A stretch of DNA of 64,000 nucleotides from Thermoanaerobaculia bacterium (lineage in GTDB: Bacteria; Acidobacteriota; Thermoanaerobaculia; Multivoradales; JAGPDF01). The notes under the pieces were generated by a model. The model searched no databases and was not told the origin of the DNA. It saw only the letters and a list, made by a program, of their open reading frames with translations. Numbering within the stretch: position 1 is the first letter of the stretch; every line of letters begins with the position of its first letter. This document shows, in pieces, positions 2,857-29,211 of this stretch. The stretch is taken from NCBI GenBank assembly GCA_050186295.1, contig JBFWYP010000004.1, positions 81,773-145,772 on the forward strand, given 5' to 3'. A program made the translations under genes and the position numbers.

Positions 2857-2941
2857 CGGAGCCGTCCGCCGGAGATCGGCGGCGCGCCGCAGCATAGACT
2901 CCGCCCATGATGCATCGGCTGCAGAGCGACGCAGGTCCGCG

Positions 2942-5662
2942 ATGACTCTCGCCGCCGGCACCCGTCTCGGTCCCTACGAGATCGTCGCGCCGCTCGGCGC
3001 GGGGGGCATGGGCGAGGTCTACCGCGCACGCGACGGCCGGCTGCAGCGCGAGGTGGCGATCAAGGTGCTGCCGGCGACCTTCGCCGCCGATCCGGAGCGG
3101 CTGGCGCGCTTCACCCGCGAGGCGCAGACGCTCGCGGCGCTCAATCATCCGAACATCGCGCAGATCCACGGCCTCGAGGAGTCGGGCGAGACGCGGGCGC
3201 TGGTCATGGAGCTCGTCGAGGGCGAGGATCTCGCGGCGCGGATCGCCCGCGGGGCGATCCCCCTCGACGAAGCGCTCGACGTCGCGCGGCAGTTCGCCGA
3301 CGCGCTCGACGCCGCGCACGAGAGCGGCATCATCCATCGCGACCTCAAGCCGGCGAACGTCCGGGTGCGTCCAGACGGCACCGTCAAGGTGCTCGACTTC
3401 GGCCTCGCCAAAGCGCTCGACCCCACGACCTCGACGGGCGGCGCCGGCGCTCCGACTCTCGCCAACTCGCCGACCCTCACCCAGCACGCCACCCAGCTCG
3501 GCGTGATCCTCGGCAGCGCCGCGTACATGTCCCCCGAGCAGGCGCGCGGCCGCGCCGTCGATCGCCGCGCCGACATCTGGGCGTTCGGTGCGGTCCTCTT
3601 CGAGATGCTCACCGGGCAACGCGCCTTCGAGGGGGAGGAGATCACCGACGTCCTCGCCTCGGTGCTCAAGACCGAGCCCGACCTCGACGTGGTGCCGGCG
3701 GAGACGCCGCCCGCGGTGCGCCGCCTCCTCCGCCGCTGCCTCGAGAAGGATCCGCGCCGCCGCCTGAGCTCGATCCACGACGCGCGCCTCGAGCTCGACG
3801 AGCGCGAGGCGGCGACGCCGGCCGCCGGCACGGCGGAACCGCCGGCATCGCGCCGCCCGTCGTCCCGCACGATCCTCGCCGCGGTCGTGGCGACGGCCGT
3901 CGTCACGGCGCTCGCGAGCTGGCTCGCTCTCCGTTCGGGCGCCGCGGGCGGCGCGCGCTCCGGCGCCGCCGCCGTCGCCCGCTTCTCGCTCCTGCCGCCG
4001 CCGGGCGAATCGTTCTACGCCGACTCGACCGGCGTCGCGATCTCCCCCGACGGCCGCAAGGTCGCCGCCCTCGTCGGCAACGCGACACGGGTCGGAACCA
4101 CGCTCTGGGTGCGCTCGCTCGACTCGCCCGCCATCCGCCCGCTGGAGAGCGGCGAGGAGGCGCAGGGGCCGTTCTGGTCGCCCGACAGCCGGCGGATCGG
4201 CTACTTCAGCAGCCGCGAGCTGAAGATCATCTCCGCCGACGGCGGCCGTCCGCAGGTCGTCTGTGACGCGCCGAACGGCCGCGGCGCCGCCTGGAACCGC
4301 GACGACCAGATCCTCTTCGCGCCGGACGCCAGCGGAGCGCTCTACCGCGTGTCGGCGAACGGCGGCACGCCGGTGGCGGTCACCGCTCTGGACTCCGCTC
4401 GTGGGGAGTGGTCGCATCGCAGCCCGCAGTTCCTCCCCGACGGCGACCACTTCCTCTTCGCCGTGCTGCCGGCGCGGAACGGCCGTTTCGACATCTACGC
4501 GAGCTCGCTCGCGAACCCGTCGGAGCGCACCCTGATCGGCGAGCTCGAGAGCACGCCGATCTACGTCGAGCCGGGGTGGCTCCTCTTCTCCCGCCGCGGC
4601 GTCCTCACCGCGCAGCGCTTCGACACGCGCGCCCTTCGCCTCGAGGGAGATGCGGTCGCGCTCGGCGACGAGCCGACGATGGTCTCCGACCCGGCGTTCA
4701 GCTACACCGCGGCGCCGGTCACTTCGAGCGCCGCCGACGGCACGCTCGCCTACGTCTCCGCCGGCGCGAACCGCACGCGCGCGTTCTGGCTCGGCGCGGA
4801 CGGAAGGCCGCCGGCCGACGGCGCCGACCTGCCGCTCCCGCCCGGCCCGTACTCGGCCCTGGCGATCTCTCCCGACGGTGCCCTCGCCGCCCTGGTGCGC
4901 TCGGTCTCACCGGTCGAATCGGCGATCTGGCTGGTCGAGCTCGCGCGCGGCGGCGGCACACCGTTCTCGGTCGGCGGCGGACGCAACGACGCGCCGGTCT
5001 GGTCGCCGGACGGCAGCCGCATCGTCTTCGCCTCGGATCGCGACGGCCCGCAGAACTTCTACATGAAGCAGCTCGGCGCCGGCGGTCCGGAGCTGCCGAT
5101 CTACTCCTCGCCGGCCATGTTCAAGAATCCGGAATCGTGGTCGGCGGACGGCCGCTGGATCCTCTTCCAGCAACTCAATCCGGGATCGCACCAGGACATC
5201 CTGCTCCTCCCGGCCGACGGGAAGGGAGAGCCGGTGCCGTTCATCGCCAACCCGGCGCGCGATTTTCTGACCTCGCCCTCCCCCGACGGCCGCTGGTGCG
5301 CCTACGTCAGCGAAGACTCGGGTCAGGCGCAGCTCTACCTCACCTCGTTTCCGGAGGCGGGCCGCCGGATCCAGATCTCGCGCGACGGCGCGTTCCACAG
5401 TTGGTGGTCGCGCGACGGCCGCGAGCTCGTCTGGGTCGACCAGGATCTGGAACGGATCTCACGGGTCGAGATCCGTCCCGCCGCGGGGTCCTCGTCGCTG
5501 CCGCAGATCGGCGATCCGCGCCGGATCTTCGATCTCCCGCCGGCCACGATCGCGGTCGCCCCCCTGCCCGACTTCTCGCGCTTCCTCGTCCTCGTCCCCG
5601 AGACCCACGTGATCGAAACCGTCACCGTGGTGCAGAACTGGCGGGCCGGGCTCGGGAAGTAA
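2942..5662 (+). CDS. Ser/Thr protein kinase with C-terminal TolB-like WD40 beta-propeller repeats
   Basis: N-terminal kinase motifs: GAGGMGEVYRA (P-loop), AIKVL (Lys), HRDLKPANV and DFGLAK. A TM segment sits at about aa 310-330. The C-terminus has repeated SPDG...(A/F)xS propeller blades. Confidence 0.85.
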   Translation: MTLAAGTRLGPYEIVAPLGAGGMGEVYRARDGRLQREVAIKVLPATFAADPERLARFTREAQTLAALNHPNIAQIHGLEESGETRALVMELVEGEDLAARIARGAIPLDEALDVARQFADALDAAHESGIIHRDLKPANVRVRPDGTVKVLDFGLAKALDPTTSTGGAGAPTLANSPTLTQHATQLGVILGSAAYMSPEQARGRAVDRRADIWAFGAVLFEMLTGQRAFEGEEITDVLASVLKTEPDLDVVPAETPPAVRRLLRRCLEKDPRRRLSSIHDARLELDEREAATPAAGTAEPPASRRPSSRTILAAVVATAVVTALASWLALRSGAAGGARSGAAAVARFSLLPPPGESFYADSTGVAISPDGRKVAALVGNATRVGTTLWVRSLDSPAIRPLESGEEAQGPFWSPDSRRIGYFSSRELKIISADGGRPQVVCDAPNGRGAAWNRDDQILFAPDASGALYRVSANGGTPVAVTALDSARGEWSHRSPQFLPDGDHFLFAVLPARNGRFDIYASSLANPSERTLIGELESTPIYVEPGWLLFSRRGVLTAQRFDTRALRLEGDAVALGDEPTMVSDPAFSYTAAPVTSSAADGTLAYVSAGANRTRAFWLGADGRPPADGADLPLPPGPYSALAISPDGALAALVRSVSPVESAIWLVELARGGGTPFSVGGGRNDAPVWSPDGSRIVFASDRDGPQNFYMKQLGAGGPELPIYSSPAMFKNPESWSADGRWILFQQLNPGSHQDILLLPADGKGEPVPFIANPARDFLTSPSPDGRWCAYVSEDSGQAQLYLTSFPEAGRRIQISRDGAFHSWWSRDGRELVWVDQDLERISRVEIRPAAGSSSLPQIGDPRRIFDLPPATIAVAPLPDFSRFLVLVPETHVIETVTVVQNWRAGLGK

Positions 5663-5689
5663 GAGGGCTCCGGATCGGCGCGCGGCGCG

Positions 5690-7132
5690 TCAGGGCCCTT
5701 CCGCCGACCAGAAGAGCGTCGACCCGGATTCGAAGTCGTCCGCGAAGATCAGGGAACCGGGCTGCGGCGTCGCGTTGTACTCCACCGCGCCGACGTCGCA
5801 GCCGTCGCCGTCCGGGTTGTCAGGCACGGCGGCGATGTCGCGTGCGCGCAGGCCGGTGCCGGCCTCGCCGTGCCCCCGCTGGTCGACCTCCGCCTCGCCA
5901 CAGCTCCCCTGGTCGATCACCGGATGCGGCGTTTCGGTGAGCGGCAGGTGGGTCGCCGTCGGGCCGCCGTTCGCCGCCAGCGCGCCGAGGCGCGGATCGA
6001 GCGGCGAGCCGCTCGTGCCGACGAAGTCGCCGTTGGCGTTGGCGACCCCTCCGCCGGGACTCGCCGGGAACTCGGTCTCGACGCAGCTCCCGTCGCCGAT
6101 CACGTTGAAGCCGTGGGTGACGACGGCGCCGGCCGGCGCCAGGGAGATCTTCATCTCGTCGCACGGAGAAGAGGACGCGTGATCGATGCCGCCGGCGACG
6201 ATCGAGTTCTGGAACTGCAGGGCGACGTCCGCCGTCGAGGTGCTGACCGCGTAGATCGTTCCGCCCGTGCCGAGGGCCGAGTTGGCGTCGAGGTCGGACT
6301 CGTTGCCGTAGAGGGTGCTGTCGAGGAGGACCACACTGAGGACGGTGCCGGTGCCCCCGGTGATGCCGAGCGCTCCGCCCTGGTGGTTCGAGCCGTTGCC
6401 CGAGAAGGTCGACGAGACGATGCGGACGGCGGCCGGAGTCGAACCGAACGGCACGATCCGGATCGCCCCGCCGATGCCGCTCGGTCCGGTCGATCGGTTG
6501 CCCGAAAAGGTCGAGCTCAAGATCGTCAGGTCGCCGCCGCCCGTCCAGGAGAGCGCGCCACCGCCGCCGACCGCGGCCGGCGCGGCGCCGTTGTTGTCGA
6601 ACGTCGTGCGCTCGATCCACAGGTTGCCGATGACGTTCGCACCGCCGCCGCTGCCGGTGGTCGCGCAATCGCGGACCGCCATGTCGACGAGCGCCACGCT
6701 CCCGGCGCTGCTCGTCGAGGCGAAGCAGCCGCCCGCGCCGTTGCGGACGGTGAAGCCGCGCAGGACGAGCCAGCGATCCTCGGCCGCGAGAAACCCCAGC
6801 GGCCGCACGAGGTCCATGCCGTCGATCGCCAGGAGGTCGCGCCCCGGCCCTTCGATCGCCAGACCGTCGGTGATCGTCGGCAGCGCCGTCGCGAGCTCGA
6901 TCGTGCCGCTGACCGAGAGCCGGATCCGGTCGGAGCTGCCGCTGCCGCACGGACAGTCGAAGCTCGGCGCGTCGGTGTTGGCCGCGACGATCGCCTCGCG
7001 CAGGGAACAGAAGCCGTCGTTCGCGTTCACGGACAGGAGCGTGTCGACGACGATCGTCGCCGCCGCCGCCGGGCCAGCGAGCAGGATCGCTCCGAGGGTG
7101 AGGGTGCACAGGACTCCTGACGTTCGTCGCAT
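5690..7132 (-). CDS. Secreted right-handed parallel beta-helix repeat protein (CSLREAI-motif adhesin/pectate-lyase-like fold) with a C-terminal FESG...W tail
   Basis: Signal peptide MRRTSGVLCTLTLGAILLAGPAAAA. It has a CSLREAIVAAN motif and Gly/Thr/Ser/Asn-rich beta-helix repeats. The C-terminus is ...LIFADDFESGSTLFWSAEGP. Confidence 0.65.
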   Translation of the reverse strand: MRRTSGVLCTLTLGAILLAGPAAAATIVVDTLLSVNANDGFCSLREAIVAANTDAPSFDCPCGSGSSDRIRLSVSGTIELATALPTITDGLAIEGPGRDLLAIDGMDLVRPLGFLAAEDRWLVLRGFTVRNGAGGCFASTSSAGSVALVDMAVRDCATTGSGGGANVIGNLWIERTTFDNNGAAPAAVGGGGALSWTGGGDLTILSSTFSGNRSTGPSGIGGAIRIVPFGSTPAAVRIVSSTFSGNGSNHQGGALGITGGTGTVLSVVLLDSTLYGNESDLDANSALGTGGTIYAVSTSTADVALQFQNSIVAGGIDHASSSPCDEMKISLAPAGAVVTHGFNVIGDGSCVETEFPASPGGGVANANGDFVGTSGSPLDPRLGALAANGGPTATHLPLTETPHPVIDQGSCGEAEVDQRGHGEAGTGLRARDIAAVPDNPDGDGCDVGAVEYNATPQPGSLIFADDFESGSTLFWSAEGP

Positions 7133-16668: not shown

Positions 16669-16743
16669 GAATATGGCTAGAAACCTGAAACAAGCGACCT
16701 CGTTATTTTAGATTAAGCTCCTTTTCTAAATCAACCTGCCTCC
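16669..16743. promoter_or_regulatory. AT-rich spacer (about 35% GC) between the DUF2779 stop and the Fic start; probably holds the DUF2779 terminator and the Fic promoter
   Basis: The sequence aaacctgaaacaagcgacctcgttattttagattaagctccttttctaaatcaacctgcc is a strong compositional outlier in an approximately 70% GC background. Confidence 0.3.
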
Positions 16744-18303
16744 TCAGCCCCGCTCTGCGACCAGCCGCTCGAGCGCCGCGACGATTTCGATCATCCCCGC
16801 GGTGTCGCGCGCGCAGTAGTCGAGGAGCGCGCGGCGGATCGACTCGCGCTCCGCCGCGGTGGTTCCGGGCGCGTTCGAGCGCACGAACTCGCGCGCCGCG
16901 AGCTGCCCCTCCTGGATCTCGAGCTCGTCGTAGCCGCGGTCGCCCAGCACCGGCAGCACCCGCTTGAGCGAGGCGCTGCCGCGCTGCGCCGGGTGGTAGT
17001 AGTCGAAGCGCGCGAACGGATCGAGCAGATCGACGAGCCGGCCGGTGACGCGCGCCGCCCACTCGACGTGCTCGGGAAAGTGCGCCGCCGTCTCGGCGAG
17101 CACCCGCCGCTCGAACGAAGCGTTGTAGACCAGGATCGCCGGCGGCGGTCCTCCCCCGGCGGCCGCGTCGAGCTCGCCGATCGCCGCCCGCAGCGCCGCG
17201 AGGAAGCCCGCTCGCGGATCGTCGCCGTCCGGCGCCAGCCAGGCGTCGGCGCGCGGCGCCGCACCCTCCTCTTCCAGCCGATGGAGCGAGAACTGGAACG
17301 GGATCTGCTGGTAGGGGCGCGTGCCATCGAACGGCGGCACGGCGGAGGCGAAGGTCTCGAAGTCGAGGAAGAGGCGCGGATACGGGAGCTGCTCGAGGAA
17401 CGAGGCGATCGCCGCGCGATTCACGTGCGCCTCGCCGGTGCGCGCCGCCTCGACCTGGATCCGCTGGTCGGCCTGGAGCTCCGCGGTCGCCGGCAGGGAG
17501 CGGAGGTCGCGCACGCCGCTCCCGTAGAGCTGCCACATCCGCTGCCCGCCGCGGCGGAGGTCGAGGAGGTCGTGCTCCGGCCGTTCGCCCCAGCAGTACG
17601 GCAGGAGCGGGCAGGTGTGCGGCGCCTTGCAGTGCGGACCGATCGCGATCTCCGGCTCCGCCGGAAGCGCCGCGACCGCGACGAGCTCGGCGACCCGCTG
17701 CGGAATCTCCCGCGCCAGCGCCGCGACCTGCTCGCCGAGATCGACGACGGTGAAGAGCCGCCGGAGATCGAGCGCCCCCTCGCGCACGTAGTCCGAGCTC
17801 AGATGCACGAGCGAGGTGCGACGCACCCGCAGCCCGGCCGAGCGCACGATCCAGGCCTGGAGCGCGAGATCCTCGACGTTCTCGTCCCTGGCGGACGTGC
17901 CGCTCTTCACCTCGTACAGATCCCAGGCGCCGGCGCTCCCCGCCTCTCCCCCGTCGTCGTCCACCGGCACCAGGATGTCGACCCGGCAGCCGACGTCGGC
18001 ATCGCCACCACCCTCGCCAGCGCCGCCAGCGCCGCCAGCGACGAACGTCGCCTCGTACAGCGGCAACCGCCAGGCGAGCGCATCGCGCGTCTTCGCCGCC
18101 GCCTCCATCCAGCGGAAGCGTCCACCGGTGATCTCCATCCCGCCCGGAAAGAGCTGCTGCGCCAATCGCCCCACCTCGTGCCCCTGATCGAACACTGCCT
18201 TCGTCGCGGCGTCCACCGGCGGCACGAGCTCCCGGCGATTCGCTTCGATCCAGAGCCGCTTGAAGCACTGCCGGCCGGCGAGGTAGCGGGATTTGGAGAG
18301 CAT
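16744..18303 (-). CDS. DUF2779 protein: Cas4/RecB-like PD-(D/E)xK Fe-S nuclease domain fused to a DnaQ-like DEDD 3'-5' exonuclease domain
   Basis: Starts MLSKSRYLAGRQCFKRLW, the family-typical N-terminus with the first Cys. A D...EVK nuclease core (VDILVPV...DLYEVKSG) and a CKAPHTCPLLPYC Cys cluster. The C-terminal half has Exo motifs LFLDFETF (I), YNASFE (II) and LLDYCARD (III). Confidence 0.7.
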   Translation of the reverse strand: MLSKSRYLAGRQCFKRLWIEANRRELVPPVDAATKAVFDQGHEVGRLAQQLFPGGMEITGGRFRWMEAAAKTRDALAWRLPLYEATFVAGGAGGAGEGGGDADVGCRVDILVPVDDDGGEAGSAGAWDLYEVKSGTSARDENVEDLALQAWIVRSAGLRVRRTSLVHLSSDYVREGALDLRRLFTVVDLGEQVAALAREIPQRVAELVAVAALPAEPEIAIGPHCKAPHTCPLLPYCWGERPEHDLLDLRRGGQRMWQLYGSGVRDLRSLPATAELQADQRIQVEAARTGEAHVNRAAIASFLEQLPYPRLFLDFETFASAVPPFDGTRPYQQIPFQFSLHRLEEEGAAPRADAWLAPDGDDPRAGFLAALRAAIGELDAAAGGGPPPAILVYNASFERRVLAETAAHFPEHVEWAARVTGRLVDLLDPFARFDYYHPAQRGSASLKRVLPVLGDRGYDELEIQEGQLAAREFVRSNAPGTTAAERESIRRALLDYCARDTAGMIEIVAALERLVAERG

Positions 18304-18428
18304 TGGGTCGCCCGGAGGCTGGGCGGAAGAGTATCGCTCCAGGCGGAGAAGACGGAGTTCGCCGGTGTGGCGATGGAAGTGCGACTAGCCCCCGGCGCTG
18401 TGCCAGAGGACCAAACAAATCCAGGCAG

Positions 18429-19100
18429 CTAGCCCGGCCGCTCCAAGACCCGGAAGTATGTATCGAGGTGGACGCGCTCCACGTTCCACTTCCTCGAGAC
18501 CTGGAGTGCGGCCTCTTGAAACCGCTCGTTGCTCTCCACGTCGATGTCGCCGATCTTCCGCCACGCCGGAGCAATGTCCGGCTCCAGCTCGTGGAGACGC
18601 CGGCCGGAGATACTGTCGAGAGGGACCTCGAACCAGTCCGGCGAAACCTTCGAGCCGAACTCGGACTTCAGGAACGCGTTGTAGTAGCAGTCGCGAAGAA
18701 AGATGTTCAGACACTTTCGCGCCAGCCCCCAGGCGCATCGTCCGACTCCAACGGCCTCCTGAATCCTGTCCGTCCAGCGATCGAGTGCCGCGAGGGGCCT
18801 CTTCTGGCCCGACACTCCAAAACTCGACAGGCGGACGTGAGAGAGCGCCGAACGAAGATCGTCGACGAGTCCAGCTTTCTGCCCTCGAGCCGTGGAAGCG
18901 CCAACGGCAAGCCTCGCGCATCGGAGATCAATGGCGAGATGCAAACTAGGCCGCTTCTTGAGAGAAGCCGCCGCTGGGCCCCGGGGTGAACGAGCGGATC
19001 CGCATCGGGGCCGGTGGTTGTCGGCCCTGCCTTCACTCTCAGCATCACTTCGGCATACGAGCCTGTCGCCGCTGTCGACTTCGCTTCGCCACGCTGGCAT
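18429..19100 (-). CDS. Hypothetical protein in the SIR2 operon; start uncertain
   Basis: The C-terminal 130 aa are protein-like and lower in GC (…CLNIFLRDCYYNAFLKSEFGSKVSPDWFEVPLDSISGRRLHELEPDIAPAWRKIGDIDVESNERFQEAALQVSRKWNVERVHLDTYFRVLERPG). The ATG at 19100 is 14 nt after the upstream gene's stop. The N-terminal part is compositionally poor, so the true start may lie further downstream. Confidence 0.4.
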   Translation of the reverse strand: MPAWRSEVDSGDRLVCRSDAESEGRADNHRPRCGSARSPRGPAAASLKKRPSLHLAIDLRCARLAVGASTARGQKAGLVDDLRSALSHVRLSSFGVSGQKRPLAALDRWTDRIQEAVGVGRCAWGLARKCLNIFLRDCYYNAFLKSEFGSKVSPDWFEVPLDSISGRRLHELEPDIAPAWRKIGDIDVESNERFQEAALQVSRKWNVERVHLDTYFRVLERPG

Positions 19101-19114
19101 TTGCGCATCCAACG

Positions 19115-19771
19115 CTAGGGTGAGGCGCCGGGCGCCAAACCTACCGAAACCAAGTAGCGATTGTGCAGTTCCACGAATAGCTTCAGCAACCGCCCAACCT
19201 CGTTCACACAAGACGGTGCGAGAGGGCCGGACCACTCGATTCCAGAGTGCAGAAACCCGTTTCGTGCTTTTGCAACTTCGCCAAGAAATTCCCAGCCCTC
19301 TTCCGCTTCGAGCTCAGCCACTGCTCGATCGAGCGGAACGGCAGTGAGGGTCTGAAACAACTCGGCCATTCGGCGCCGTCCTCGAGCCTTGTCGAATAGA
19401 TCCCGCTGTTCCTCGTTGGCGAGACCTTTGCGCACCATTAGCCTCTTTAGGAGGTGGCGCAGCAACGCTTCCTGAAGGGCACAGAAATAGTTAACAGTCG
19501 CTAGTTCCGCGCCCTTGTTTGCCCAAGGCGGCGCCCCTCCAATGGAGAGTGCCAGCCATCGTTGCTGTTGCATGAGATCCACTAAAGAAAGCACCTGCAT
19601 CGGGAAGTAGGCGCGCGACACAACATTCTCAACACCGCATGCCGGGCAAGGCCATGGCACCGCTGCTCCAAACCGGCCCACGACATCGCACTGGTGGCAG
19701 ATGATGTAGCCACCGAGGACCGCTGAAAGGGGTTGGAGCGGATCGATGTCGTAGAGTTGAAGCTGGGCCAT
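19115..19771 (-). CDS. Zinc-ribbon protein with a HEPN-like RNxxxH motif (candidate RNase effector)
   Basis: CHQC-x16-CPAC zinc ribbon (aa 25-45). The rest is alpha-helical. KARNGFLHSG (R170, N171, H175) fits the HEPN Rx4-6H / RNxxxH signature. GC is lower than in flanking DNA. Confidence 0.6.
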   Translation of the reverse strand: MAQLQLYDIDPLQPLSAVLGGYIICHQCDVVGRFGAAVPWPCPACGVENVVSRAYFPMQVLSLVDLMQQQRWLALSIGGAPPWANKGAELATVNYFCALQEALLRHLLKRLMVRKGLANEEQRDLFDKARGRRRMAELFQTLTAVPLDRAVAELEAEEGWEFLGEVAKARNGFLHSGIEWSGPLAPSCVNEVGRLLKLFVELHNRYLVSVGLAPGASP

Positions 19772-19828: not shown

Positions 19829-22624
19829 TCAACTTTGGCTCCTCAGTGTCCTGTAGAGCTCCTCAGCACCTTCGATCCTTCGCATCCGTTCAAGCAGTCG
19901 AAAGGATTCCGACCTGAAACCGGCTGATGAGAGCCTTCTCACCGTCTCTAGCAAGTGGCCATCCAGATCGAAGTCGGGCTCACTGGCGTCCAACGCGAGG
20001 CTGAGCAGGACAAGAACCTCATGCGGGTTCAAGTCCGCTAGCCGTACAAACTCTTCGGCCACTTCATAAAAGTCGACGCCTTTCGCCACTTCTGGAATCA
20101 CTCTCCTCAGCCAGTCCATTGCCTCGTCATCAAGCCGCTCGACGAAGCAGATAAGACGACCAAGGGCTCTCTTCAGTTCAGCCAGACTTCCGGCACCCTC
20201 ATCGCGCAACTCCAGAGTCCGCCGGACGAAGCTGAGGATCTTTGCCACCTGCGTCGCCTCTAGACCTTGCCGCTCAAGTGCCCAATAAAGGTGAGCCACA
20301 ACGACAAGATCCTCCTCACGGCCACTTCCCACGAGAAAGGTCAGGTTCTCGCCGTCGAGCTCCTCCTCCCCCCAGAGATAGCCCAAGCCAACAGACTCCA
20401 CTAGCCGCTCTCGGGCCTGGCGGCCTCTCGGGGGGTGCCTCAGGCCATCGAGAATGACCCCACCGTCGCGAAGAGCACGATAGACGGCACGGGATGTCGC
20501 CGCGTACGCCAATCCGTCCAAGGCGCTCTCCCTCGTCAAACGCCCCTCGAGGGAGAAAACACCCAGAGCCCTTGATCGCACCCACTCGTCGTCTAGATAG
20601 TAGAAGTTTGAAAGCCGCGAGCCGAGCAAAGTTGAGAACTCGAAATTTCCATCCGTGCACCGATCCAACTCACGATCAAAGATCGGCCGAACACGGCTCC
20701 AGGCTGTCGAATGCCCCGCCTTGGCTAGATCAGCCTCGCGACAGCTTCGTAGGGTCAGGCCAATCAGTGACTCAATGACCTTCCCGCGAGTACTGTTGAT
20801 CGCCTGATGCATTGGGTCATCGTCGAGGGTATCGGCAGGCTTCAGGCGATCAAGTAGCGCAGTTGTGATTTCGATCGCAACCTCAAGCAAAGAAGCCGGA
20901 ATCCCTCGGAGCTCGTCACGCGCTCCGGCGGCTAGCGCCTTCATAGCAGCGCTCGAAACGGCCTCTGGCTCCCCCTTCCATGAGAGCACTTCCCTAGTTG
21001 CCCAAGACTCATCGGTAAGCAAGAACTTACGCACGCCGTTGATCAGCTGCTTCCAGAGTTCCGCAGTATCAATGGCTATCTCGGCAACAGAATTCTTTGA
21101 CCAGAGCCTGCTCACGGCCATTAGGAATGCATAAAAGTATTCCGGCCGCGCCTCTAGATAGATAGCCGGGGCGCGAAGGAATTCTTCCGGTGACTCCACA
21201 ATCGCTTCCTCAAACTCTTGAATCAACGCGTCGACGGGGGATCCATTCCACGTCTCATCGCCTCGCATCGCGTTGATCTGCGAAATCAAGGTACCCTCGA
21301 TCGCCATGGCCTTTAGAGCGCCACGTGACAGCGGAGAGGGGCCCGGCCCCCACCTGGTCTCGTGGTAGATCTGGAAGTCGGGGTGCTCGGATGATGGCAA
21401 TGCCCCGGCCGCATTCGCCTTGGCGAGAACCTCTTCAACCCAAGCAAGCCCTTTCCCCTCCAAAGCCCGGAGCCACTTCGCCGTTCGAAATAGAAACTCC
21501 CTCTCGTCATCAGGGTTTGCTCGGGCAACCTCTTCAATCGCAGAGCGCGTTAGCTCCTTCTGCTCTTCACTGAACTCGGCCCATCGTTGCGCAACCAACT
21601 CATAGGTCTCGTGAAACAGATCGACCGCAAAGTGTGCGGTGTTCGGATGAAATGCGGACGCGAGCCCAGCCCATCTCTCTTTTAGGACGTAAAGGCCAAT
21701 CCTGCGAAGAATCTGCGAATCGCTTCGCAAAAGGCCCTCGACAAACTCTCGCGCTCCAGCCTGGCCCGAATCAATCCACTCAAGCGTTGAATCACGAAGC
21801 GCTTCGACAAACCCGTTTGCGACAGCCTCCCAGCTGTGATTCTGATCGTGGTCGCCGATCGATGGTCGAATAGAGCAGCTGAGTTGCTGACCGAGAGATG
21901 TTCCAAAGACCTGGCGGATTCGATCCGAAAGGAGTGCCGTCGCGTCCGCTCCCATTTCCCGGCCGAAAGTTTTTGCGTGGTCCAGCAGAAGCTTTCTTAG
22001 CCAGTACGCTTCGACAGCCGGAACGGCGCGCCCCTGGTCAAGGTCGTCGCTCGCCGGTTCCCGAACTGAAAGAGCGGTCAGGTGCCCGAATACCCGAAGT
22101 GCTAACACTTTGCATCGCGGCTCCTCGCTTCCAAGGAGATTTGAGAGAAGACCCTTGGAAACTGCCTCTGAGACAAGCGCACCTTCGAACCTTCCGGCGA
22201 GCCAAATTGGCAGGAGATCCACGGTCTCTTCACGGATGAGCGAAACCGGAACCGCGCCCAAGATTTCCGCAAAGATCCGATTGGTGTGGTAGTTATCCCG
22301 CTGCTGGGATCCCGACCCCAGACTAACTTCACGCACTACTTCGAGCACCTGCGCTCCGAGCTCGAGATCAGGCTTGGAGCTGGACCGCCTAGCGACCGCA
22401 AGGAGATATCTGAGTACAGGCCAGAAGGGAATTCGGTAGTAGCCCCTGTTCGCCTCGTCTTCCACCGGCACTGGATTCTCGCCAGCGGAAAAGAATCCCT
22501 CCTGCAGCAGGTCTTCGAAATGCTTCTCGGGCTTCTCCCGAGCCGCGAGCTCCTCAAATCCGAACGAGGCGAGCTCTCTGCTCGCTCGCAGCTTTCGCAT
22601 GAAGGCCTCGAAGTTCGCACTCAC
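19829..22624 (-). CDS. Large (931 aa) alpha-helical protein without recognisable catalytic motifs; candidate sensor partner of the SIR2 protein
   Basis: Single long protein-like ORF in a reduced-GC region. No Walker A/B, HxH, DxD or nuclease motifs were seen. Its start overlaps the SIR2 stop (ATGA at 22621-22624). Confidence 0.7.
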   Translation of the reverse strand: MSANFEAFMRKLRASRELASFGFEELAAREKPEKHFEDLLQEGFFSAGENPVPVEDEANRGYYRIPFWPVLRYLLAVARRSSSKPDLELGAQVLEVVREVSLGSGSQQRDNYHTNRIFAEILGAVPVSLIREETVDLLPIWLAGRFEGALVSEAVSKGLLSNLLGSEEPRCKVLALRVFGHLTALSVREPASDDLDQGRAVPAVEAYWLRKLLLDHAKTFGREMGADATALLSDRIRQVFGTSLGQQLSCSIRPSIGDHDQNHSWEAVANGFVEALRDSTLEWIDSGQAGAREFVEGLLRSDSQILRRIGLYVLKERWAGLASAFHPNTAHFAVDLFHETYELVAQRWAEFSEEQKELTRSAIEEVARANPDDEREFLFRTAKWLRALEGKGLAWVEEVLAKANAAGALPSSEHPDFQIYHETRWGPGPSPLSRGALKAMAIEGTLISQINAMRGDETWNGSPVDALIQEFEEAIVESPEEFLRAPAIYLEARPEYFYAFLMAVSRLWSKNSVAEIAIDTAELWKQLINGVRKFLLTDESWATREVLSWKGEPEAVSSAAMKALAAGARDELRGIPASLLEVAIEITTALLDRLKPADTLDDDPMHQAINSTRGKVIESLIGLTLRSCREADLAKAGHSTAWSRVRPIFDRELDRCTDGNFEFSTLLGSRLSNFYYLDDEWVRSRALGVFSLEGRLTRESALDGLAYAATSRAVYRALRDGGVILDGLRHPPRGRQARERLVESVGLGYLWGEEELDGENLTFLVGSGREEDLVVVAHLYWALERQGLEATQVAKILSFVRRTLELRDEGAGSLAELKRALGRLICFVERLDDEAMDWLRRVIPEVAKGVDFYEVAEEFVRLADLNPHEVLVLLSLALDASEPDFDLDGHLLETVRRLSSAGFRSESFRLLERMRRIEGAEELYRTLRSQS

Positions 22625-23625
22625 GGCTCGGCCTCAAGTAGAGCTCTCATCTCGAGCTTTTCCTGCATTACAAGGGGCGTTGCTGCCGGAATTTCCTTGG
22701 CAAACGCCTCCAGCACGTCAATAAGCTGATCGTAACCTCGCCCATCTAGCGCAAACGGAACTAGTTCGATTCCACACTCCTCGCGGTAGTAAGTTCTAAG
22801 CCTTCGCATCATCGCTAGTTCATGCGTGAAATATCCCTGAAGCATGTAGTGCCGCTGAGCTCTTCCAGCCTCTGACCTGTGCCTCGCCTTCTGAACAACG
22901 TACTCGAGAACCTCAAGTTCGTCGAAGCCGTAGCCAACAAACAACACACTGTACTGACTAAAGAGATGCTCCAAGAATGTCAAGATGCGATTCTCATCCT
23001 GACTCGTTCGAACGAACCTATCGTTTGCGTAGTGATCCAAGTAGTCCCGCGTGGTGAGAACCATCTCTTCAGGGAACTCAATCGAACCGTGAAGGTGAAC
23101 GACGGTATCCGGCTGTCTCAGGTCGTCTGGGAGTATCAGGCTCGGTTTGCTCACCATCCTGCGCTTTAGCCGTTGCGGAGCGCTATTCATCGCCGCTTCA
23201 GGCTCGAAGTCGCCCCGATACTCGCGGTCCTCGTCTAGCCACCGATCGTAGTTCGTCGTGACGAAATTCCTCGACAGTCGCGACAGGGCGCGATAGAGCC
23301 GAATACCCTTCTCGTTCTTCTCCCAATCCTTCGGATGGAGTATTGCCTGGAAATCGATTGGCGTGCTGTGTTCCCGCGCCAGTGCGGTGGCAATCGCCAG
23401 TTTGATCTTGGCACCCTTGCGTTTGAGAAGTTCGACTTCAGCGTGATTCAGCTTTCCTCTTTCAACGAAGAATTGTAAGCACCTGTCGGCAAAACCGCTC
23501 CAATCTGGGCATCCAGCGAGCCGCGATGCGCCCGCACCTACGAAAGGCCTAAGGTAACCGATGGCTGCGGCCTCGCGAAGGCCTTCGGGGATCGCTGGTA
23601 TCGCTTGAATATCTGCCAGAGACAT
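22621..23625 (-). CDS. SIR2-like (SIR2_2/DHS-like NAD-binding) domain protein, defence-type NADase candidate
   Basis: MSLADIQAIP...LRPFVGAGASRLAGCPDWSGF (the GAGxS loop), VTTNYDRWLDE (the TTNYD motif) and VVHLHGSIE (the catalytic His motif). It is 334 aa with no deacetylase Zn module. Confidence 0.8.
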   Translation of the reverse strand: MSLADIQAIPAIPEGLREAAAIGYLRPFVGAGASRLAGCPDWSGFADRCLQFFVERGKLNHAEVELLKRKGAKIKLAIATALAREHSTPIDFQAILHPKDWEKNEKGIRLYRALSRLSRNFVTTNYDRWLDEDREYRGDFEPEAAMNSAPQRLKRRMVSKPSLILPDDLRQPDTVVHLHGSIEFPEEMVLTTRDYLDHYANDRFVRTSQDENRILTFLEHLFSQYSVLFVGYGFDELEVLEYVVQKARHRSEAGRAQRHYMLQGYFTHELAMMRRLRTYYREECGIELVPFALDGRGYDQLIDVLEAFAKEIPAATPLVMQEKLEMRALLEAEP

Positions 23626-24365: not shown

Positions 24366-26828
24366 TCAAATTCCCACAACGGCGACGAATTCCCCGACAA
24401 CTCGCACTACTTCGGGCGCTTCCGGCTCCAACACGATTGCCTCGTACCCACCCCGGTCGCTGTCGGGACTGAGAACGATCCGCTCGTGCTGCCAACTCCC
24501 GTCTTCGGCTGCCCCCTTGTCGCTCCTGTAGAGCTTCACCGTGTAGCGGCCCCCGGACTCCGGGTCGGATCCTTCGCGTAGCTCGACCAAGACCACCTTC
24601 CCGGCCCTCGAGCCCGCTGGCGCTTCGCGGAACAGGCACCAGGAGCCGTTCGGGATCCGCCGGTTCATCGACTCGCCGACCACCTGGATCAGGAATCTCC
24701 CGGGGCGGGCTGGGAAATCTTCCGGAAGTGCGACCCAATCGATAGCTTCTGACACCTCGCCGTCCTCCGCCGCCTGAATCAGGGCCTGGAACTCGCTGAA
24801 GCCGCCTGCCGCTGCGCGCAGGTCGAAAACCGGGATGGCGTTCTCGAAAGGCCGAAGCGCTTCGGCAGCCACTCGCTCGAACGGGAGCGAGCGGGCGGGC
24901 CGGCTCTCGGGGGGTGAGGTTGCCTCCGCTTCGTCGGCGCGGCCGGGAAATGCGAGCGGAGTACCGATCCGGCTGCGAAAGAAGCGCTCGGTGTCTTTGT
25001 CCTCGAAGTAGACGAAGCAGCCCTTGAGGCCACGCGAGAGAAGGACTCGGTAGGTGTTCTTCACCAGGGCCAGGAATTCACCCTTCGCTCGCTTGACCTT
25101 GGTGTCCTGCGACACTTCCGGATGCCCCTCCCACACCTGTCGGTCGAGGTCATAGGTCAAGTCTTTCCCGAAGATGACGCCGACAAAGTCGAACTCGAAT
25201 CCCTGCGCCGTATAGACACAGCCGATCTGGAAAAGACCTCCTGGATCGTGCGCCCAGAGATTGGACTTGGGGATACCTGGGGCGAGCTTCCCGGCGTCGG
25301 GCCTGGCATTCCATGGCCGCGCGAATCCGTCGATGGTGACATCGTTCTCGAGCTGGCCGTTCTTGTCCGGTTTCGACCAAGGCCAACAGAATCCGGCAGT
25401 GAGGCGCGCCGTTGCTCCGGCCTGCACTTTCGAACGAATCAGCTGATCGAGCTCCTCGGGGCTCTCGCAGATGCCGAACTCGAAGCCTTCCTCGGTCTGC
25501 AGGATGCTGCTCGGCGTCTTTTCGATTCCGAGCGTGTTGTTGACCCACTCGACGAACTGGTCGGAGCCGGCGCAGCGGAACTGTGCGTGCAGCTCATACT
25601 CGAGCACGCGGCAACCCAGTGACGCGGCACTGGAGCGGATGTAGTCCGTAGAGCCGATCTCTCCAGGCCGCACGACCTGGCGATCGTCCACGAAGTAGAC
25701 GCTCACCTTGGAGGCATGGATCAGCTCCTCGACCTGCGGTAGGCCGCTGCGCCGACTCTTCGGCGTAAACCGGTCCACGCTCGTCGTCCGGATCCGGTGC
25801 GACTCGTCGCAGATCAGAACGTCGATCTCGTTCGGTTGCGCCTCGACGTAGCTATTGAAGTACTTGAACTGCACCTGGCTCCGCGAGCCGACCATTTTCC
25901 GCAGCGTTTCCGTGAACGCCTTCGAACCGGTCGCATAGTGCGAGTTGAAGCCCTCCGCGAGAAGCGAGCTCATGAGATTGAGCGCGATGACCGACTTCCC
26001 GGTCCCGGGTCCGCCACGAACGATCAGGACGGTCTTCTTCGCGTCGTGGAAGCCGGACTTCGCCAGCGCGAGGACCTTGCTGTGAACGACCAGCTGCTCA
26101 TCCAGGAGGACATACTGCGGCAGGCCCTGAATCACCTTCGCGACGTGGTCCATCAAGCGCTTGCTGGCGCGGTACTTTCCCTCTTCGATGCGCTGCAGGA
26201 CCGGCATCCCGTCCCCGCCACGGAGCCGCTCCGCGAGGAACTGAGAGAGCTCGTCGGAGTGCGACGCAGTGAATGACGGCGCCTCCTGGAGAATCTGCTG
26301 GTAGCGCGGGCGGAAAAGGGTGTCGTCGGCGACCGGGTTGTAGTTGTGCAGAAAGGCGCAGGCGGTCACCCCGACGGGCGACTCTCCTTCGTAGAAGGCG
26401 GTGTGCCCATCCTTCAGATACTGCCTGTAGGCGTTCGCCTGGGCAGATGGGTGCAGAACGTCGCGGATCGCACCGCCGACCCAGGTCTGCACCAGATTCT
26501 CGCCGTCCGACTCCTCACACTGCTCCCACTGCTTGAGCTCGATGATGATCGCCTGGGCCCGGCCCGGCTCGTCGTGCCCGCAAACGAGGCAGTCGAGCCG
26601 CTTCGATGTCAGTGGCAGTTTGTATTCGAGGAGAACGCCGTGGTCGTCGAGCGAGGAGCGCTGGAACGTCAGCGTCAGTGCGCGGAGCGAGTTCTGCCAG
26701 GAAGCGACCTCGCCATCGCCGGGCTTGTATCCGAAGTGGGCGACGAAAGCCTCGACGAGCTTGCCGGCAATCCGGTTCCGTGCCGTGTCCTCGAAGAGCT
26801 GGGTCGTGCTTCCTGAATACAGCCTCAT
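24366..26828 (-). CDS. DUF2075-type nuclease/P-loop NTPase (PD-(D/E)xK N-domain plus SF1-like ATPase) fused to a C-terminal LexA/S24-like peptidase domain
   Basis: N-terminal SWQNSLRAL and ...RLDCLVCGHD...AIIIELKQW (D-ExK). Walker A VRGGPGTGKS (aa 271-279) and Walker B VLICDESHR. The C-terminal 120 aa read ...LRAAAGGF...LIQVVGESMNRRIPNGSWCLFRE...GKVVLVEL...RYTVKLY. This gives a GESM serine nucleophile plus a downstream Lys, with an Ala-Gly about 45 aa upstream. Confidence 0.75.
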   Translation of the reverse strand: MRLYSGSTTQLFEDTARNRIAGKLVEAFVAHFGYKPGDGEVASWQNSLRALTLTFQRSSLDDHGVLLEYKLPLTSKRLDCLVCGHDEPGRAQAIIIELKQWEQCEESDGENLVQTWVGGAIRDVLHPSAQANAYRQYLKDGHTAFYEGESPVGVTACAFLHNYNPVADDTLFRPRYQQILQEAPSFTASHSDELSQFLAERLRGGDGMPVLQRIEEGKYRASKRLMDHVAKVIQGLPQYVLLDEQLVVHSKVLALAKSGFHDAKKTVLIVRGGPGTGKSVIALNLMSSLLAEGFNSHYATGSKAFTETLRKMVGSRSQVQFKYFNSYVEAQPNEIDVLICDESHRIRTTSVDRFTPKSRRSGLPQVEELIHASKVSVYFVDDRQVVRPGEIGSTDYIRSSAASLGCRVLEYELHAQFRCAGSDQFVEWVNNTLGIEKTPSSILQTEEGFEFGICESPEELDQLIRSKVQAGATARLTAGFCWPWSKPDKNGQLENDVTIDGFARPWNARPDAGKLAPGIPKSNLWAHDPGGLFQIGCVYTAQGFEFDFVGVIFGKDLTYDLDRQVWEGHPEVSQDTKVKRAKGEFLALVKNTYRVLLSRGLKGCFVYFEDKDTERFFRSRIGTPLAFPGRADEAEATSPPESRPARSLPFERVAAEALRPFENAIPVFDLRAAAGGFSEFQALIQAAEDGEVSEAIDWVALPEDFPARPGRFLIQVVGESMNRRIPNGSWCLFREAPAGSRAGKVVLVELREGSDPESGGRYTVKLYRSDKGAAEDGSWQHERIVLSPDSDRGGYEAIVLEPEAPEVVRVVGEFVAVVGI

Positions 26829-26831
26829 CGA

Positions 26832-27206
26832 TCAGAGCCGATCGTACTTGCGGTTGCTGCCGCGCGATCTCTCGACCGGATATTTCGACTCGTTGACCAC
26901 CAGCTTGGCGCGCAACGCATTCGCGGGGTCGATCCCGTTCCGCTCACAGAACCGCAGGAGAAAGAAGAGTGTGTCGCCGATCTCGTGTTCGATCGCCAGG
27001 CGATCGTTGGCGTCCGCGAGCCGCTCCTCGACCTCCTCGTCGCTCAGGAAGCGGAACTGCGCGAGGAGCTCGGCCGCTTCGGTGGCAAGCCCGATCGCCA
27101 GATCTTTGGGTGAGTGAAACGGATCCCACTCGCGCGCCTCGCAAAAGGCCTGGACCTCCTTCGCCAGCGCCGCAAGCGTGTCGCTCCTCGCACTGCCCTC
27201 GCTCAT
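26832..27206 (-). CDS. MazG-like nucleotide pyrophosphohydrolase (small all-alpha NTP-PPase)
   Basis: ATG at 27206 with a GGGAG RBS 5 nt upstream. It is preferred over the track TTG at 27311, which would leave only 17 nt to the upstream gene. The 124-aa protein has EAAELLAQF...EEExxE...EIGDTLFFLLRF motifs. Its stop lies 3 nt before the start of the downstream DUF2075 gene. Confidence 0.7.
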   Translation of the reverse strand: MSEGSARSDTLAALAKEVQAFCEAREWDPFHSPKDLAIGLATEAAELLAQFRFLSDEEVEERLADANDRLAIEHEIGDTLFFLLRFCERNGIDPANALRAKLVVNESKYPVERSRGSNRKYDRL

Positions 27207-27327
27207 GCGACTCCCATCGAAGTGAATTGCTGGCGGCACTCTACCGAACCGATCCGCCAGGGCCTTCGCCTCCTCACCCGTATCAACGAACAACTCCCCC
27301 AAACCGGTCAAATCGGGCGGAGTTTTC

Positions 27328-28320
27328 TCACCACCCCCACCTCCCCATCCAGTCGACGGCGTTCGAGAGGGCGTCGATCAGGCCGTGGAGGGCGACGATC
27401 AGGAGCCAGTTCCGGGTGCGCAGCCAGAGGACGCCGAAGAGGAGGCCGGCGACGCCCATGGTGGTGATGCTGTAGGCGAGCGCCAGGGCGAGGGAGGGCG
27501 GTTCGGTCATCCCTTCCAGCGCGGCGGCTCCGCGCAGCCAGAGGCCGGGGGCGTGGGCGAGGCCGAAGACGAGGGCCGCAAGGAAGAGGCCGGCCGCCGG
27601 GGAGCGGGTGAGGGCGGCGAGGCGCGACTGCAGGAGGATGCGGAAGAAGGTCTCCTCCACCAGCCCCGCCTCGAGCGACATCCAGAGGAACGAGAGGACG
27701 AGGCCGACGAGCCAGTGGCGGCCGGCGAGCGAGCCGTCGAGGAACGGGCGGGCGCCGTGGCCGATCAGGAGCTGGATCGCGACCATCGCCGCGCCGAGGA
27801 CGACGAAGGCGAGCCAGCTGCGGTTGCGCGTTCGGGCGTCGGAGGGCGGCCCGGGTGGCCAGCCGAGGCCGAGCGCTTTCGGCAATAGCGGCGATCTCCC
27901 GAGAGCGAATCGATAAGCCGCGAGCGGCACCGCGACGAAGACCGCGAGCTTGAGCAGGAGCTCGACCGTGTCGATCCAGCGCGGGTCCGAGCCCGGCGGC
28001 GCGAACGCCGCGACGAGTCGCCCCTTCGCCGCCAGGAAGAGGACCACCCAGCCGACCAGCGCGGCGAGGAGCCATCCCTCCCGCGCCCGCCGCGCGCCGG
28101 GCGCTCCCGCGCCGGAATCCTCTGGAGCCAGCGGCGGCAGCGGCAGACCGCGGCAGACGAGGAGCGCGACTCCGGGGAGCGCCAGGCCGAAGATCAGGAG
28201 GAGGAAGAGCGGGCCCTCGAGCGGCTTTCCGAGAGCCGCGAGGGTCGCGCCGCCCGCCAGCCAGGCGGCGGCGAAGAGCGCGAAGGCGATGGTCCCGGCC
28301 CGGCTCGCGCGGGCGGTCAT
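27328..28320 (-). CDS. CPBP family intramembrane metalloprotease (second copy, 331 aa)
   Basis: Internal ATG at 28320 gives MTARASRAGTIAFALFAAAWLAGG. Multi-TM protein with motifs EETFFR, FGLAHAPG and HGLIDALSNAV. Confidence 0.7.
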   Translation of the reverse strand: MTARASRAGTIAFALFAAAWLAGGATLAALGKPLEGPLFLLLIFGLALPGVALLVCRGLPLPPLAPEDSGAGAPGARRAREGWLLAALVGWVVLFLAAKGRLVAAFAPPGSDPRWIDTVELLLKLAVFVAVPLAAYRFALGRSPLLPKALGLGWPPGPPSDARTRNRSWLAFVVLGAAMVAIQLLIGHGARPFLDGSLAGRHWLVGLVLSFLWMSLEAGLVEETFFRILLQSRLAALTRSPAAGLFLAALVFGLAHAPGLWLRGAAALEGMTEPPSLALALAYSITTMGVAGLLFGVLWLRTRNWLLIVALHGLIDALSNAVDWMGRWGW

Positions 28321-28526
28321 CCTGTTCGGGTCTCCATGCCCGATCCCCCCGGAAGGTGACAGCGAAAGGGCGACTCTACCCGAGCGCTCCGCGCGGGCCA
28401 GGTCCACGAATTCCGGTCGCCGCTTCGACTGGGGTCATGCCCGTTTCGGCGCCAGGTTCCGGCGCCGATTCGCGTCTCTTTCGACGGGAGGACACAAGTT
28501 GACCACTATGTCATTTCTGACATACC

Positions 28527-28868
28527 ATGGCCGGCGGTGACGAGGAGCGTCCGCTCGTGTGGCTCGGGGGAGAGATTCGCACTCCGCCGCTCTCCCACGC
28601 AGCCCGCGTCGAAGCCGGCCTGCTGCTCCGGCGCCTGCAGGCGGGCGAATCGATCGGCATGCCGTACTGCCGGCCCATGCCGTCGGTCGGCGAGCGCTGC
28701 TACGAGCTGCGAATTCCGGATCGCGCGACCAGTTGGCGCATCGTCTTCCGGCTCGACGCAGATGCCGTCGTGCTGCTCGAGGTCTTCGCGAAGAAGACGC
28801 GGGCAACCCCATCGTCGGTGATCCAGACCTGCAGGCGGAGGCTCCGCAGGTACGAAGGGAGAGTGTGA
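28527..28868 (+). CDS. higB: Type II toxin, Gp49-like/HigB-like RelE/ParE superfamily
   Basis: A 113-aa protein. ERPLVWLGG...CYELRIPDRATSWRIVFRLDADAVVLLEVFAKKT matches the Gp49/HigB pattern. It is followed 25 nt later by an XRE-HTH gene. Confidence 0.65.
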   Translation: MAGGDEERPLVWLGGEIRTPPLSHAARVEAGLLLRRLQAGESIGMPYCRPMPSVGERCYELRIPDRATSWRIVFRLDADAVVLLEVFAKKTRATPSSVIQTCRRRLRRYEGRV

Positions 28869-28893: not shown

Positions 28894-29211
28894 ATGAAAC
28901 CCGCCAAGCGCGCGCGGCTCGAAGCCTCCGGCTGGACTGTCGGTACGGCGGCGGAGTTCCTCGCTCTCGACGAGATCGAGTCGGCGATCGTCGACCTGCG
29001 ACTGACCCTCGGCCGGTCCCTTCGCGATCGGCGGACCCGCAGAGGACTCACCCAGTCGGAGCTCGCGCGGCAACTCGGTTCGAGTCAGTCGCGGGTGGCG
29101 AAGATGGAGGCCGCGGACGCCTCGGTATCGCTCGACCTGCTGATCCGCTCGCTTGTCGCACTCGGAGCGCGATCGAAGGAGATCGCGCGGGCCATCGCAC
29201 CCGGTTCCTGA
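28894..29211 (+). CDS. higA: XRE-family HTH antitoxin (HigA-like)
   Basis: A 105-aa protein. LRDRRTRRGLTQSELARQLGSSQSRVAKME is a canonical HTH_XRE. A GGAGAG RBS precedes the start. It pairs with the upstream toxin. Confidence 0.7.
   Translation: MKPAKRARLEASGWTVGTAAEFLALDEIESAIVDLRLTLGRSLRDRRTRRGLTQSELARQLGSSQSRVAKMEAADASVSLDLLIRSLVALGARSKEIARAIAPGS

Follow-up and report, generated by a model that had tools for sequence, protein, structure and literature searches.

How can nuclease-based immunity spare a host whose chromosome has suffered damage, lacks methylation or is filled with repair intermediates? The textbook answer is restriction alleviation, the mechanism of which is, to our knowledge, understood solely for Type I enzymes and ClpXP. 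This old question is raised by two adjacent genes in a stretch of 64,000 nt (hereafter ‘the window’) from a Thermoanaerobaculia bacterium (GenBank assembly GCA_050186295.1, contig JBFWYP010000004.1, positions 81,773 to 145,772). One of them encodes a large protein in which a PD-(D/E)xK nuclease, a DUF2075 helicase of superfamily 1B (SF1B) and a C-terminal S24 peptidase domain follow one another; the other, upstream, encodes a small MazG-like nucleoside triphosphate (NTP) pyrophosphohydrolase related to dCTP pyrophosphatase 1 (DCTPP1). The three-part architecture of the large protein had been proposed in a first-pass annotation made from the sequence alone and is confirmed here, each of the motifs that it quoted having been found in place by coordinate translation (Table 1). 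We consider it probable (about 0.6) that the C-terminal domain works as a self-cleaving tail that regulates an Nhi-like defence enzyme with a dCTPase-like partner. If this is true, the question would have a simple and directly testable answer in the form of a modular LexA-type tail borne by the effector, and the chemistry of LexA and activated RecA (RecA*) would extend from repressors and UmuD to immunity enzymes.

Judged by its sequence, the tail is a bona fide member of the S24 family, an identity on which Pfam, a PDB profile search and hhalign agree. Aligned with the C-terminal domain of LexA and with UmuD, as the first-pass annotation had suggested, the profile of this region gave a probability of 92% (E = 5.7e-7), with the cleavage site, the serine and the lysine all in register; AAAG pairs with VAAG, VGESM with SGMSM and TVKLY with TVKRL of the LexA-UmuD profile. 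The strand carrying the site aligns with LPLVGRVAA/GEP of LexA and VQC/GFP of UmuD (slash, cleaved bond), so that A674-G675, S720 and K765 face A84-G85, S119 and K156 of LexA. The Ala-Gly pair indeed lies 45 residues ahead of the serine, as had been noticed at first. The isolated C-terminal segment reached 23.5 bits against the Pfam Peptidase_S24 cut-off of 23.3, and all 24 sampled homologue C-termini matched this family (best E = 1e-12). In an alignment of 120 homologues, all have Ser720, Met721 and Lys765, all but one have A674, and residue 675 is Gly in 103 of them, Ser in 15 and Thr in the other 2; P666, A673, A674 and F677 are conserved at 95-100%, and W698, F712, G718, S720, M721, D755, K765, S769 and H781 are also invariant or nearly so. 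In the AlphaFold2 model of the whole protein (predicted local distance difference test, pLDDT, 81; predicted template modelling score 0.70), the C-terminal domain is all-beta, the loop right after the Ala-Gly pair (aa 673-693) has low confidence and the linker ahead of the tail is disordered (pLDDT < 50 for aa 624-647), ending in a conserved LPF(R/E)xL patch (aa 648-653). Purifying selection acting on both the dyad and the substrate loop is hard to explain unless the tail is cut, so the tail probably cleaves itself, and its competence to do so is well supported.

LexA, lambda cI and UmuD share with the tail the Ser-Lys dyad and an Ala-Gly (or Cys-Gly) site on the strand that precedes the core. 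The spacings are similar, with 45 residues from site to serine in the query protein versus 35-38, and 45 from serine to lysine versus 37-43. The overall layout is LexA-like, running from an N-terminal functional part through a linker and the site to the S24 core, and since the site lies between the functional part and the core, cleavage would separate the enzyme from its tail. However, the N-terminal part is a 620-aa nuclease-helicase, whereas members of the LexA family carry a helix-turn-helix (HTH) repressor or the short UmuD arm, and the query tail has an additional hairpin that is conserved (W779, H781), besides further invariant residues specific to its subfamily.

The tail is also found on other enzymes. 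A profile of aa 645-820 was compared with 1.84 billion representative proteins and retrieved 2423 of them at E ≤ 1e-3, of which 519 reached E ≤ 1e-30; architectures were surveyed in the best 150 (all with E < 2e-46). Part of the DUF2075 core is present in 20 of the 150; another 62 are short at the N-terminus and could be either fragments or stand-alone proteins, and in the other 68 the tail follows more than 100 residues of unrelated sequence. Among these 68, 63 match Peptidase_S24, and Pfam recognized Type_ISP_C (10 members), Eco57I (6), the MrfA Zn-binding domain MZB (5), ResIII, Helicase_C and N6_Mtase (4 each), the HsdR C-terminal domain T1RH-like_C, DUF3427, RE_endonuc and SWI2/SNF2 (3 each), Schlafen AlbA_2, the MmeI methyltransferase, a TnsA-like endonuclease and each of two HTH families (2 each), and XhoI, AlwI, LlaJI, McrBC, PLD and HSDR_N (1 each). 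In the per-protein tables the S24 domain lies C-terminal to the enzyme domains on the same polypeptide, and one tailed Type ISP-like example is a complete gene within its contig. Over the 150 representatives the serine is kept in 149, the lysine in 149 and the three positions of A-[A/C]-G in 143, 146 and 141, and the subfamily-specific residues W698, F712, D755, Y767, S769, W779 and H781 are kept as well. The tail is thus a distinct S24 subfamily and behaves as a portable module at the C-terminus of enzymes of restriction and defence. Its presence on many such enzymes suggests an undescribed direct link between a DNA-damage signal and bacterial immunity. Tailed examples stand among proteins P0121-P0269, such as P0190 in locus L085 (1009-4509). 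A tblastn search of plasmids with the S24 tail alone gave a single record and was uninformative.

How the tail is distributed on DUF2075 proteins was followed in a scan of one genome per species, which yielded 556 relatives; the counts given here are from the best 80 loci. The tailed form (~800 aa) occurs in 28 of them (27 by hidden Markov model, plus the frameshifted L075), and nearly all the others encode a form of 620-650 aa that ends just past the helicase. Among the natural tail-less homologues are some, up to 62% identical, that have the same MazG partner. In 45 of the 80 loci the MazG-like gene is the next one upstream on the same strand, at a distance of -3 to 79 nt; in 6 it comes directly after the large gene and in 4 it has some other place within 6 kb, which makes 55 in all (51 adjacent), including 22 of the 28 tailed loci; the remaining 25 have no such partner within 6 kb. 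The tight coupling to a MazG-like gene noticed at the outset is in consequence a conserved pairing and not a local accident. Clustering of all neighbouring open reading frames (ORFs) of the 80 loci gave no conserved partner besides this gene, the second and third conserved clusters being antisense shadow ORFs of it. The module spans many bacterial phyla and reaches archaea (Thermoplasmata, Woesearchaeota, Methanosarcina, Thaumarchaeota); it is present in 103 plasmid records, mostly without the tail, and in a few phage records. In a neighbour-joining tree of the core, one deep clade is tailed throughout (20/20) and the other tailed members, the query being one of them, are interspersed with tail-less proteins, a pattern that points to repeated loss or gain of the tail. 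One plasmid locus, L081 (Hymenobacter canadensis, NZ_CP114769.1, mobilisable), has two tandem DUF2075 genes at 1904-5890, adjoined by a DNA methyltransferase gene and a DUF4747 gene, and no MazG-like gene is annotated between the tandem pair.

In the reading that we prefer, the tail would be a self-cleaving post-translational switch responding to DNA damage as signalled by RecA filaments on single-stranded DNA (ssDNA). Such filaments trigger nearly all characterised members of the S24 family, and by analogy the RecA-ssDNA filament is most economically taken as the trigger here. A cut at Ala674-Gly675 would sever the tail, which probably dimerises, from the enzyme and leave an end ...LRAAA-COOH. 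Shut-off would follow through loss of tail-mediated dimerisation, through exposure of a ClpXP-type C-terminal degron as in LexA, or both, so that the nuclease-helicase is restrained as long as the host chromosome contains gaps, stalled forks or repair intermediates; this would amount to a built-in restriction alleviation. Three considerations favour this direction. Most partners of the tail are restriction enzymes, which are constitutive and need restraint after DNA damage, as in the alleviation of EcoKI restriction via ClpXP (PMC12707154). LexA-like proteins have latent ClpXP C-degrons adjoining the cleavage site (PMC5742171), and here [A/V/I]-A-A precedes the predicted scissile bond and would form the new C-terminus. 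Lastly, S24 domains dimerise and Nhi works as a dimer, so that loss of the tail could turn the enzyme into a monomer. Supposing that the tail is such a switch, shut-off is the outcome towards which we lean, activation has a distinctly smaller share of our confidence, and some other effect has the smallest.

The opposite direction is that of the first-pass annotation, in which the tail inhibits the nuclease-helicase until RecA* filaments, arising in phage replication or DNA damage, stimulate self-cleavage and so release it to degrade DNA in a damage-gated, possibly abortive, defence. An intact and strongly constrained cleavage apparatus would be expected in that case too, UmuD provides a precedent for an S24 cleavage that activates a partner, the cleaved core would be equivalent to the natural, presumably active tail-less form, the flexible linker is compatible with a removable inhibitory domain, and triggering by infection cues is common among defence systems. 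The partner spectrum argues otherwise. The same tail is carried by Type I, Type ISP/IIG and Type II restriction enzymes and by McrBC, and gating by the SOS response would cripple them; restriction enzymes must act at once on incoming DNA, self being marked by methylation. Moreover, hosts tolerate tail-less homologues with the same partner, so that there is no obvious need for an inhibitor. Nor did the analysis give any sign of contact between tail and catalytic domains. Both the existence of these natural forms with a MazG partner and the tails on restriction enzymes agree no less well with shut-off or destabilisation than with activation, which we regard as unlikely; its extension to abortive infection was pure inference and is disfavoured here. 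If the switch did activate, it would represent a new way of sensing infection, via RecA filaments.

Several points weigh against a damage-operated shut-off switch. In the whole protein the Peptidase_S24 match (aa 687-751) is marginal, with 20.0 bits below the cut-off of 23.3, and in the search of the C-terminal profile against the PDB the LexA chains are the sole top matches but weak ones (E = 0.02-1). The predicted site varies, G675 being replaced by Ser or Thr in 17 of the 120 homologues. Some LexA-like proteins, such as IrvR, are cleaved independently of RecA (PMC7101444). The tail occurs in 28 of 68 bacterial loci and in none of the 12 from archaea (Fisher p = 0.006), which fits a bacterial signal of the RecA/LexA type, but this test is uncorrected for phylogeny, and the neighbour-joining tree on which tail presence was mapped is a crude one. 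As for direction, a cleaved product 1-674 would resemble the presumably active tail-less homologues, so that cleavage need not inactivate, and the -AA end is dictated by the LexA cleavage site and would fit either outcome. Cleavage itself, the RecA* trigger and the direction of the switch are all steps that we infer.

Alternatively, the role of the tail would be mainly structural or one of targeting, by dimerisation or by recruitment to RecA filaments on ssDNA, with self-cleavage absent, incidental or triggered otherwise (for example by a phage protein, pH or stress). The S24 domains of LexA, cI and UmuD do dimerise and bind the RecA filament, and the invariant W698, D755, Y767, S769, W779 and H781, which LexA lacks, hint at an extra interaction surface. 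The dimeric state of Nhi (10.1101/776245) would agree with such a role, as would the RecA-independent cleavage of IrvR within the family. A purely structural domain would not, however, keep Ser, Lys and Ala-Gly near-invariant over 150 divergent representatives with different N-terminal enzymes, and we consider this explanation quite improbable. Returning to the self-cleaving switch, a wider proposal can be formulated tentatively, at somewhat short of even odds: bacteria would have attached a portable ‘SOS-sensing tail’ to dozens of unrelated restriction and defence enzymes, each responding to RecA* directly by self-cleavage, without transcription, and the DCTPP1-like protein and the nuclease-helicase would together form an unnamed two-gene defence system of bacteria and archaea. 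The portable tail would bring either a built-in restriction alleviation that protects the damaged chromosome or a damage-gated activation.

A conceptual parallel is the restriction alleviation of EcoKI, where, as in the favoured reading, a translocating nuclease (HsdR) is removed by proteolysis when the chromosome of the host is damaged or unprotected (PMC12707154). The signal differs, since in EcoKI it is a stalled translocating complex that is seen by ClpXP, whereas the query protein would carry its own SOS-responsive autoprotease; no mechanism with a self-carried autoprotease of this kind is described in that review, which dates from 2025 and covers restriction-modification without mentioning LexA or S24. 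Seen in this way, the DUF2075-S24 protein is an Nhi-like nuclease-helicase combined with known S24 chemistry, and an SOS tail confirmed by experiment would potentially be a new regulatory principle.

The enzyme part consists of the nuclease fold and the helicase core. The match to PF09848 covers the whole model (positions 1-354 of 354; E = 1.7e-82, 278 bits against a cut-off of 24), and none of the 120 aligned homologues departs from the nuclease residues D79 and E97-x-K99, from Walker A or from Walker B, which indicates an apparently active nuclease site and P-loop. The SWQNSL motif, formerly attributed to DUF2075, is present but sits in the nuclease domain, outside the Pfam DUF2075 envelope. 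Foldseek with the full model returned helicases only (DSH9, RecD2, Dda, SLFN11/14 and Dna2, with E = 1e-8 to 1e-11 for RecD2, Dda, DSH9, SLFN11 and Dna2) and no match for the nuclease or S24 domains; PDB searches with the single sequence or a full-length profile were uninformative about the protein as a whole. One Pfam family unites the helicase core with that of the group 3 Schlafen proteins SLFN11 and SLFN14, which, together with the nuclease-helicase Dna2, are structural matches of the query (E = 5e-9 to 2e-8). By analogy with Nhi, the nuclease and the helicase probably cooperate on replication or recombination intermediates of DNA.

Homology to Nhi, raised in the first-pass annotation, stands at the level of domain architecture and fails at that of full-length sequence, the PADLOC Nhi model matching only aa 238-390, some 150 residues around Walker A (E = 2e-10), and AbiO behaving likewise. 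Nhi (SERP2475 of Staphylococcus epidermidis; Bari et al.) and the Nhi-like proteins have the same order, PD-(D/E)xK then DUF2075, on a single large polypeptide, and like the query they are associated with defence islands. Nhi is a dimer with nuclease and helicase activities that limits the accumulation of phage DNA and is countered by a phage single-stranded DNA-binding protein (10.1101/776245), and Nhi-like proteins have been shown experimentally to be defensive (10.1101/2022.05.11.491447, Millman et al. 2022). However, the Nhi gene stands alone and the glyoxalase-like C-terminus of its product is poorly conserved, whereas the query has the S24 tail and an obligate-looking MazG partner. The query protein would accordingly work like Nhi while belonging, by sequence, outside the Nhi family.

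The partner matches Pfam PF12643 (31.9 bits against a cut-off of 27), as do 38 of 38 family members, and the profile of its family can be aligned with dCTP pyrophosphatase 1 / RS21-C6 from end to end (E = 7.6e-35). With human and mouse DCTPP1 (RS21-C6) it shares the E-x-x-E ... E-x-x-D metal site, whose ligands E43, E46, E75 and D78 are invariant in the family, so that the enzyme is apparently active; it differs from DCTPP1 in being a prokaryotic protein of 112-130 aa that is encoded in an operon with a nuclease-helicase. It may hydrolyse dCTP or those modified dCTPs that phages need, or it may regulate the nuclease, and the pairing points to an uncharacterised function of dCTP or modified-dCTP hydrolysis in defence. 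A parallel may be drawn with animals, where both Schlafen helicases and DCTPP1 are present. Extra DCTPP1-like MazG copies lie in L002 (11848-13133 and 2106-4039), L023 (3159-3641) and L071 (12612-13160); of the two in L002, one shares 4 nt with the end of a gene for an HNH_2 endonuclease and the other follows a DUF2779 gene. These L002 arrangements suggest that a DCTPP1-like pyrophosphatase may be a general accessory of defence nucleases.

The short interval between the two genes, reported in the first-pass annotation, was verified by direct reading of the sequence. No Shine-Dalgarno sequence is evident in the spacer region before the nuclease-helicase ATG, so that the two genes are likely to be translationally coupled. 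This ATG is the correct start, since homologues align from residue 1. An identical protein at NCBI (P0006, ‘DNA/RNA helicase domain-containing protein’ of a Thermoanaerobaculia metagenome-assembled genome) is annotated from Met208 and has 613 aa, so that the public record omits most of the nuclease domain, including its catalytic residues. For the MazG-like gene, the ATG at 27206 is preceded by GGGAG and coincides with the homologue starts; the TTG at 27311 given by the mechanical ORF list (159 aa) was rejected, since homologues begin ~35 codons later and the ribosome-binding site favours the ATG. A minus-strand scan for promoters and terminators around the operon gave nothing above chance.

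The first-pass annotation knew of no described DUF2075-S24 fusion. This holds for the literature searched, yet the fusion is common in databases and not rare: full-length homologues (791-828 aa) form at least 119 clusters at 90% identity, of which 50 carry precomputed PF00717 and PF09848 matches and a few are automatically named ‘phage repressor protein C ... peptidase S24’ or ‘LexA’. Within the literature searched, in which subscription journals are incompletely covered, nothing joined DUF2075 to an S24 peptidase or MazG, or S24 to restriction enzymes or restriction alleviation. A DARNA preprint considered as an earlier description concerns a HEPN protein. For the two genes as a named system, PADLOC v2 gave no strong full-length match and NCBIfam no specific family; the MazG-like gene had no PADLOC match, and membership of PDC-S41, the best PADLOC match (E = 3e-16), was dismissed as confined to a 70-residue stretch.

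Table 1. Coordinates in the window of the two-gene module, its domains and motifs, and the neighbouring genes
Feature	Residues (aa)	Position	Strand	Remarks
Nuclease-helicase-S24 gene		24366..26828	-	ATG start, 820 aa
N-terminal domain, PD-(D/E)xK (restriction-endonuclease) fold	1-235	26124..26828	-	
SWQNSL motif	43-48	26685-26702	-	
D79	79	26592-26594	-	Nuclease residue; within R77-L78-D79
E97-L-K99	97-99	26532-26540	-	Nuclease residues; within IIIELK, aa 94-99
DUF2075 / Schlafen-group-3 SF1B helicase core	265-610	24999..26036	-	PF09848
Walker A GGPGTGKS	272-279	25992-26015	-	
Walker B VLICDESH	337-344	25797-25820	-	Includes D341-E342
Linker, flexible	621-660	24849..24968	-	Mostly low confidence, poorly conserved
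Cleavage-site strand AIPVFDLRAAAGGF	664-677	24798..24839	-	Aligns with LexA and UmuD sites
Predicted scissile bond Ala674-Gly675	674-675	24804-24809	-	Within LRAAAGGF
S24 (LexA/UmuD-type) serine-lysine peptidase core	695-820	24369..24746	-	PF00717
Predicted nucleophile Ser720	720	24669-24671	-	Within GESM
Predicted general base Lys765	765	24534-24536	-	Within TVKLY
Spacer ‘tcg’		26829..26831	-	3 nt, from MazG-like stop TGA (26832-26834) to large-gene ATG (26828)
MazG-like / DCTPP1-like gene		26832..27206	-	All-alpha NTP pyrophosphohydrolase, 124 aa + stop
Split Dsr1, C-terminal part		19829..22624	-	931 aa; PADLOC Dsr1 positions 310-1166, E = 8e-83
Split Dsr1, SIR2 part		22621..23625	-	334 aa; PADLOC Dsr1 positions 1-292, E = 1e-53
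CPBP/Rce1-like intramembrane protease (Abi family)		27328..28407	-	Directly upstream of module
HigB-like Gp49 toxin gene		28527..28868	+	Beyond CPBP gene
HTH antitoxin gene		28894..29211	+	Follows toxin gene

The setting of the module is a defence island with Dsr1, the CPBP protease and the HigB/HTH pair. The G+C content is ~70% across the window and 56-64% in the stretch from ~18.5 to 27.3 kb, its lowest value, ~57%, being that of the Dsr1 region. Dsr1, a defence sirtuin, is encoded here by two ORFs with a 4-nt overlap, either a natural two-gene variant or a frameshift. The favoured reading is that the nuclease-helicase and its MazG-like partner are a two-gene module against phages or other mobile genetic elements, located in the lower-GC stretch beside the split Dsr1. 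A non-defensive function, in which a helicase-nuclease and a dCTPase-like enzyme serve repair or nucleotide-pool housekeeping under SOS control at the protein level, would accord with the Dna2-like structural matches, with the MrfA repair helicase family among the partners of the S24 tail and with the house-cleaning nature of DCTPP1-type enzymes. It is highly improbable in view of the patchy distribution, suggestive of horizontal transfer, on plasmids and in a few phages, of the lower-GC neighbourhood shared with Dsr1 and a toxin-antitoxin pair, of the dominance of restriction enzymes in the partner spectrum of the tail, of the experimentally defensive Nhi and Nhi-like proteins (10.1101/776245, 10.1101/2022.05.11.491447) and of the use of the DUF2075 Pfam family as a defence marker (PMC10121019).

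Several long ORFs (218-623 aa) lie on both strands at positions 16703..19771, by the left edge of this stretch of lower G+C, none with a Pfam match at E ≤ 1e-3; given the high-GC sequence, they are candidate genes only. At the other edge, the CPBP protease gene and the HigB/HTH pair lie in DNA of normal G+C content.

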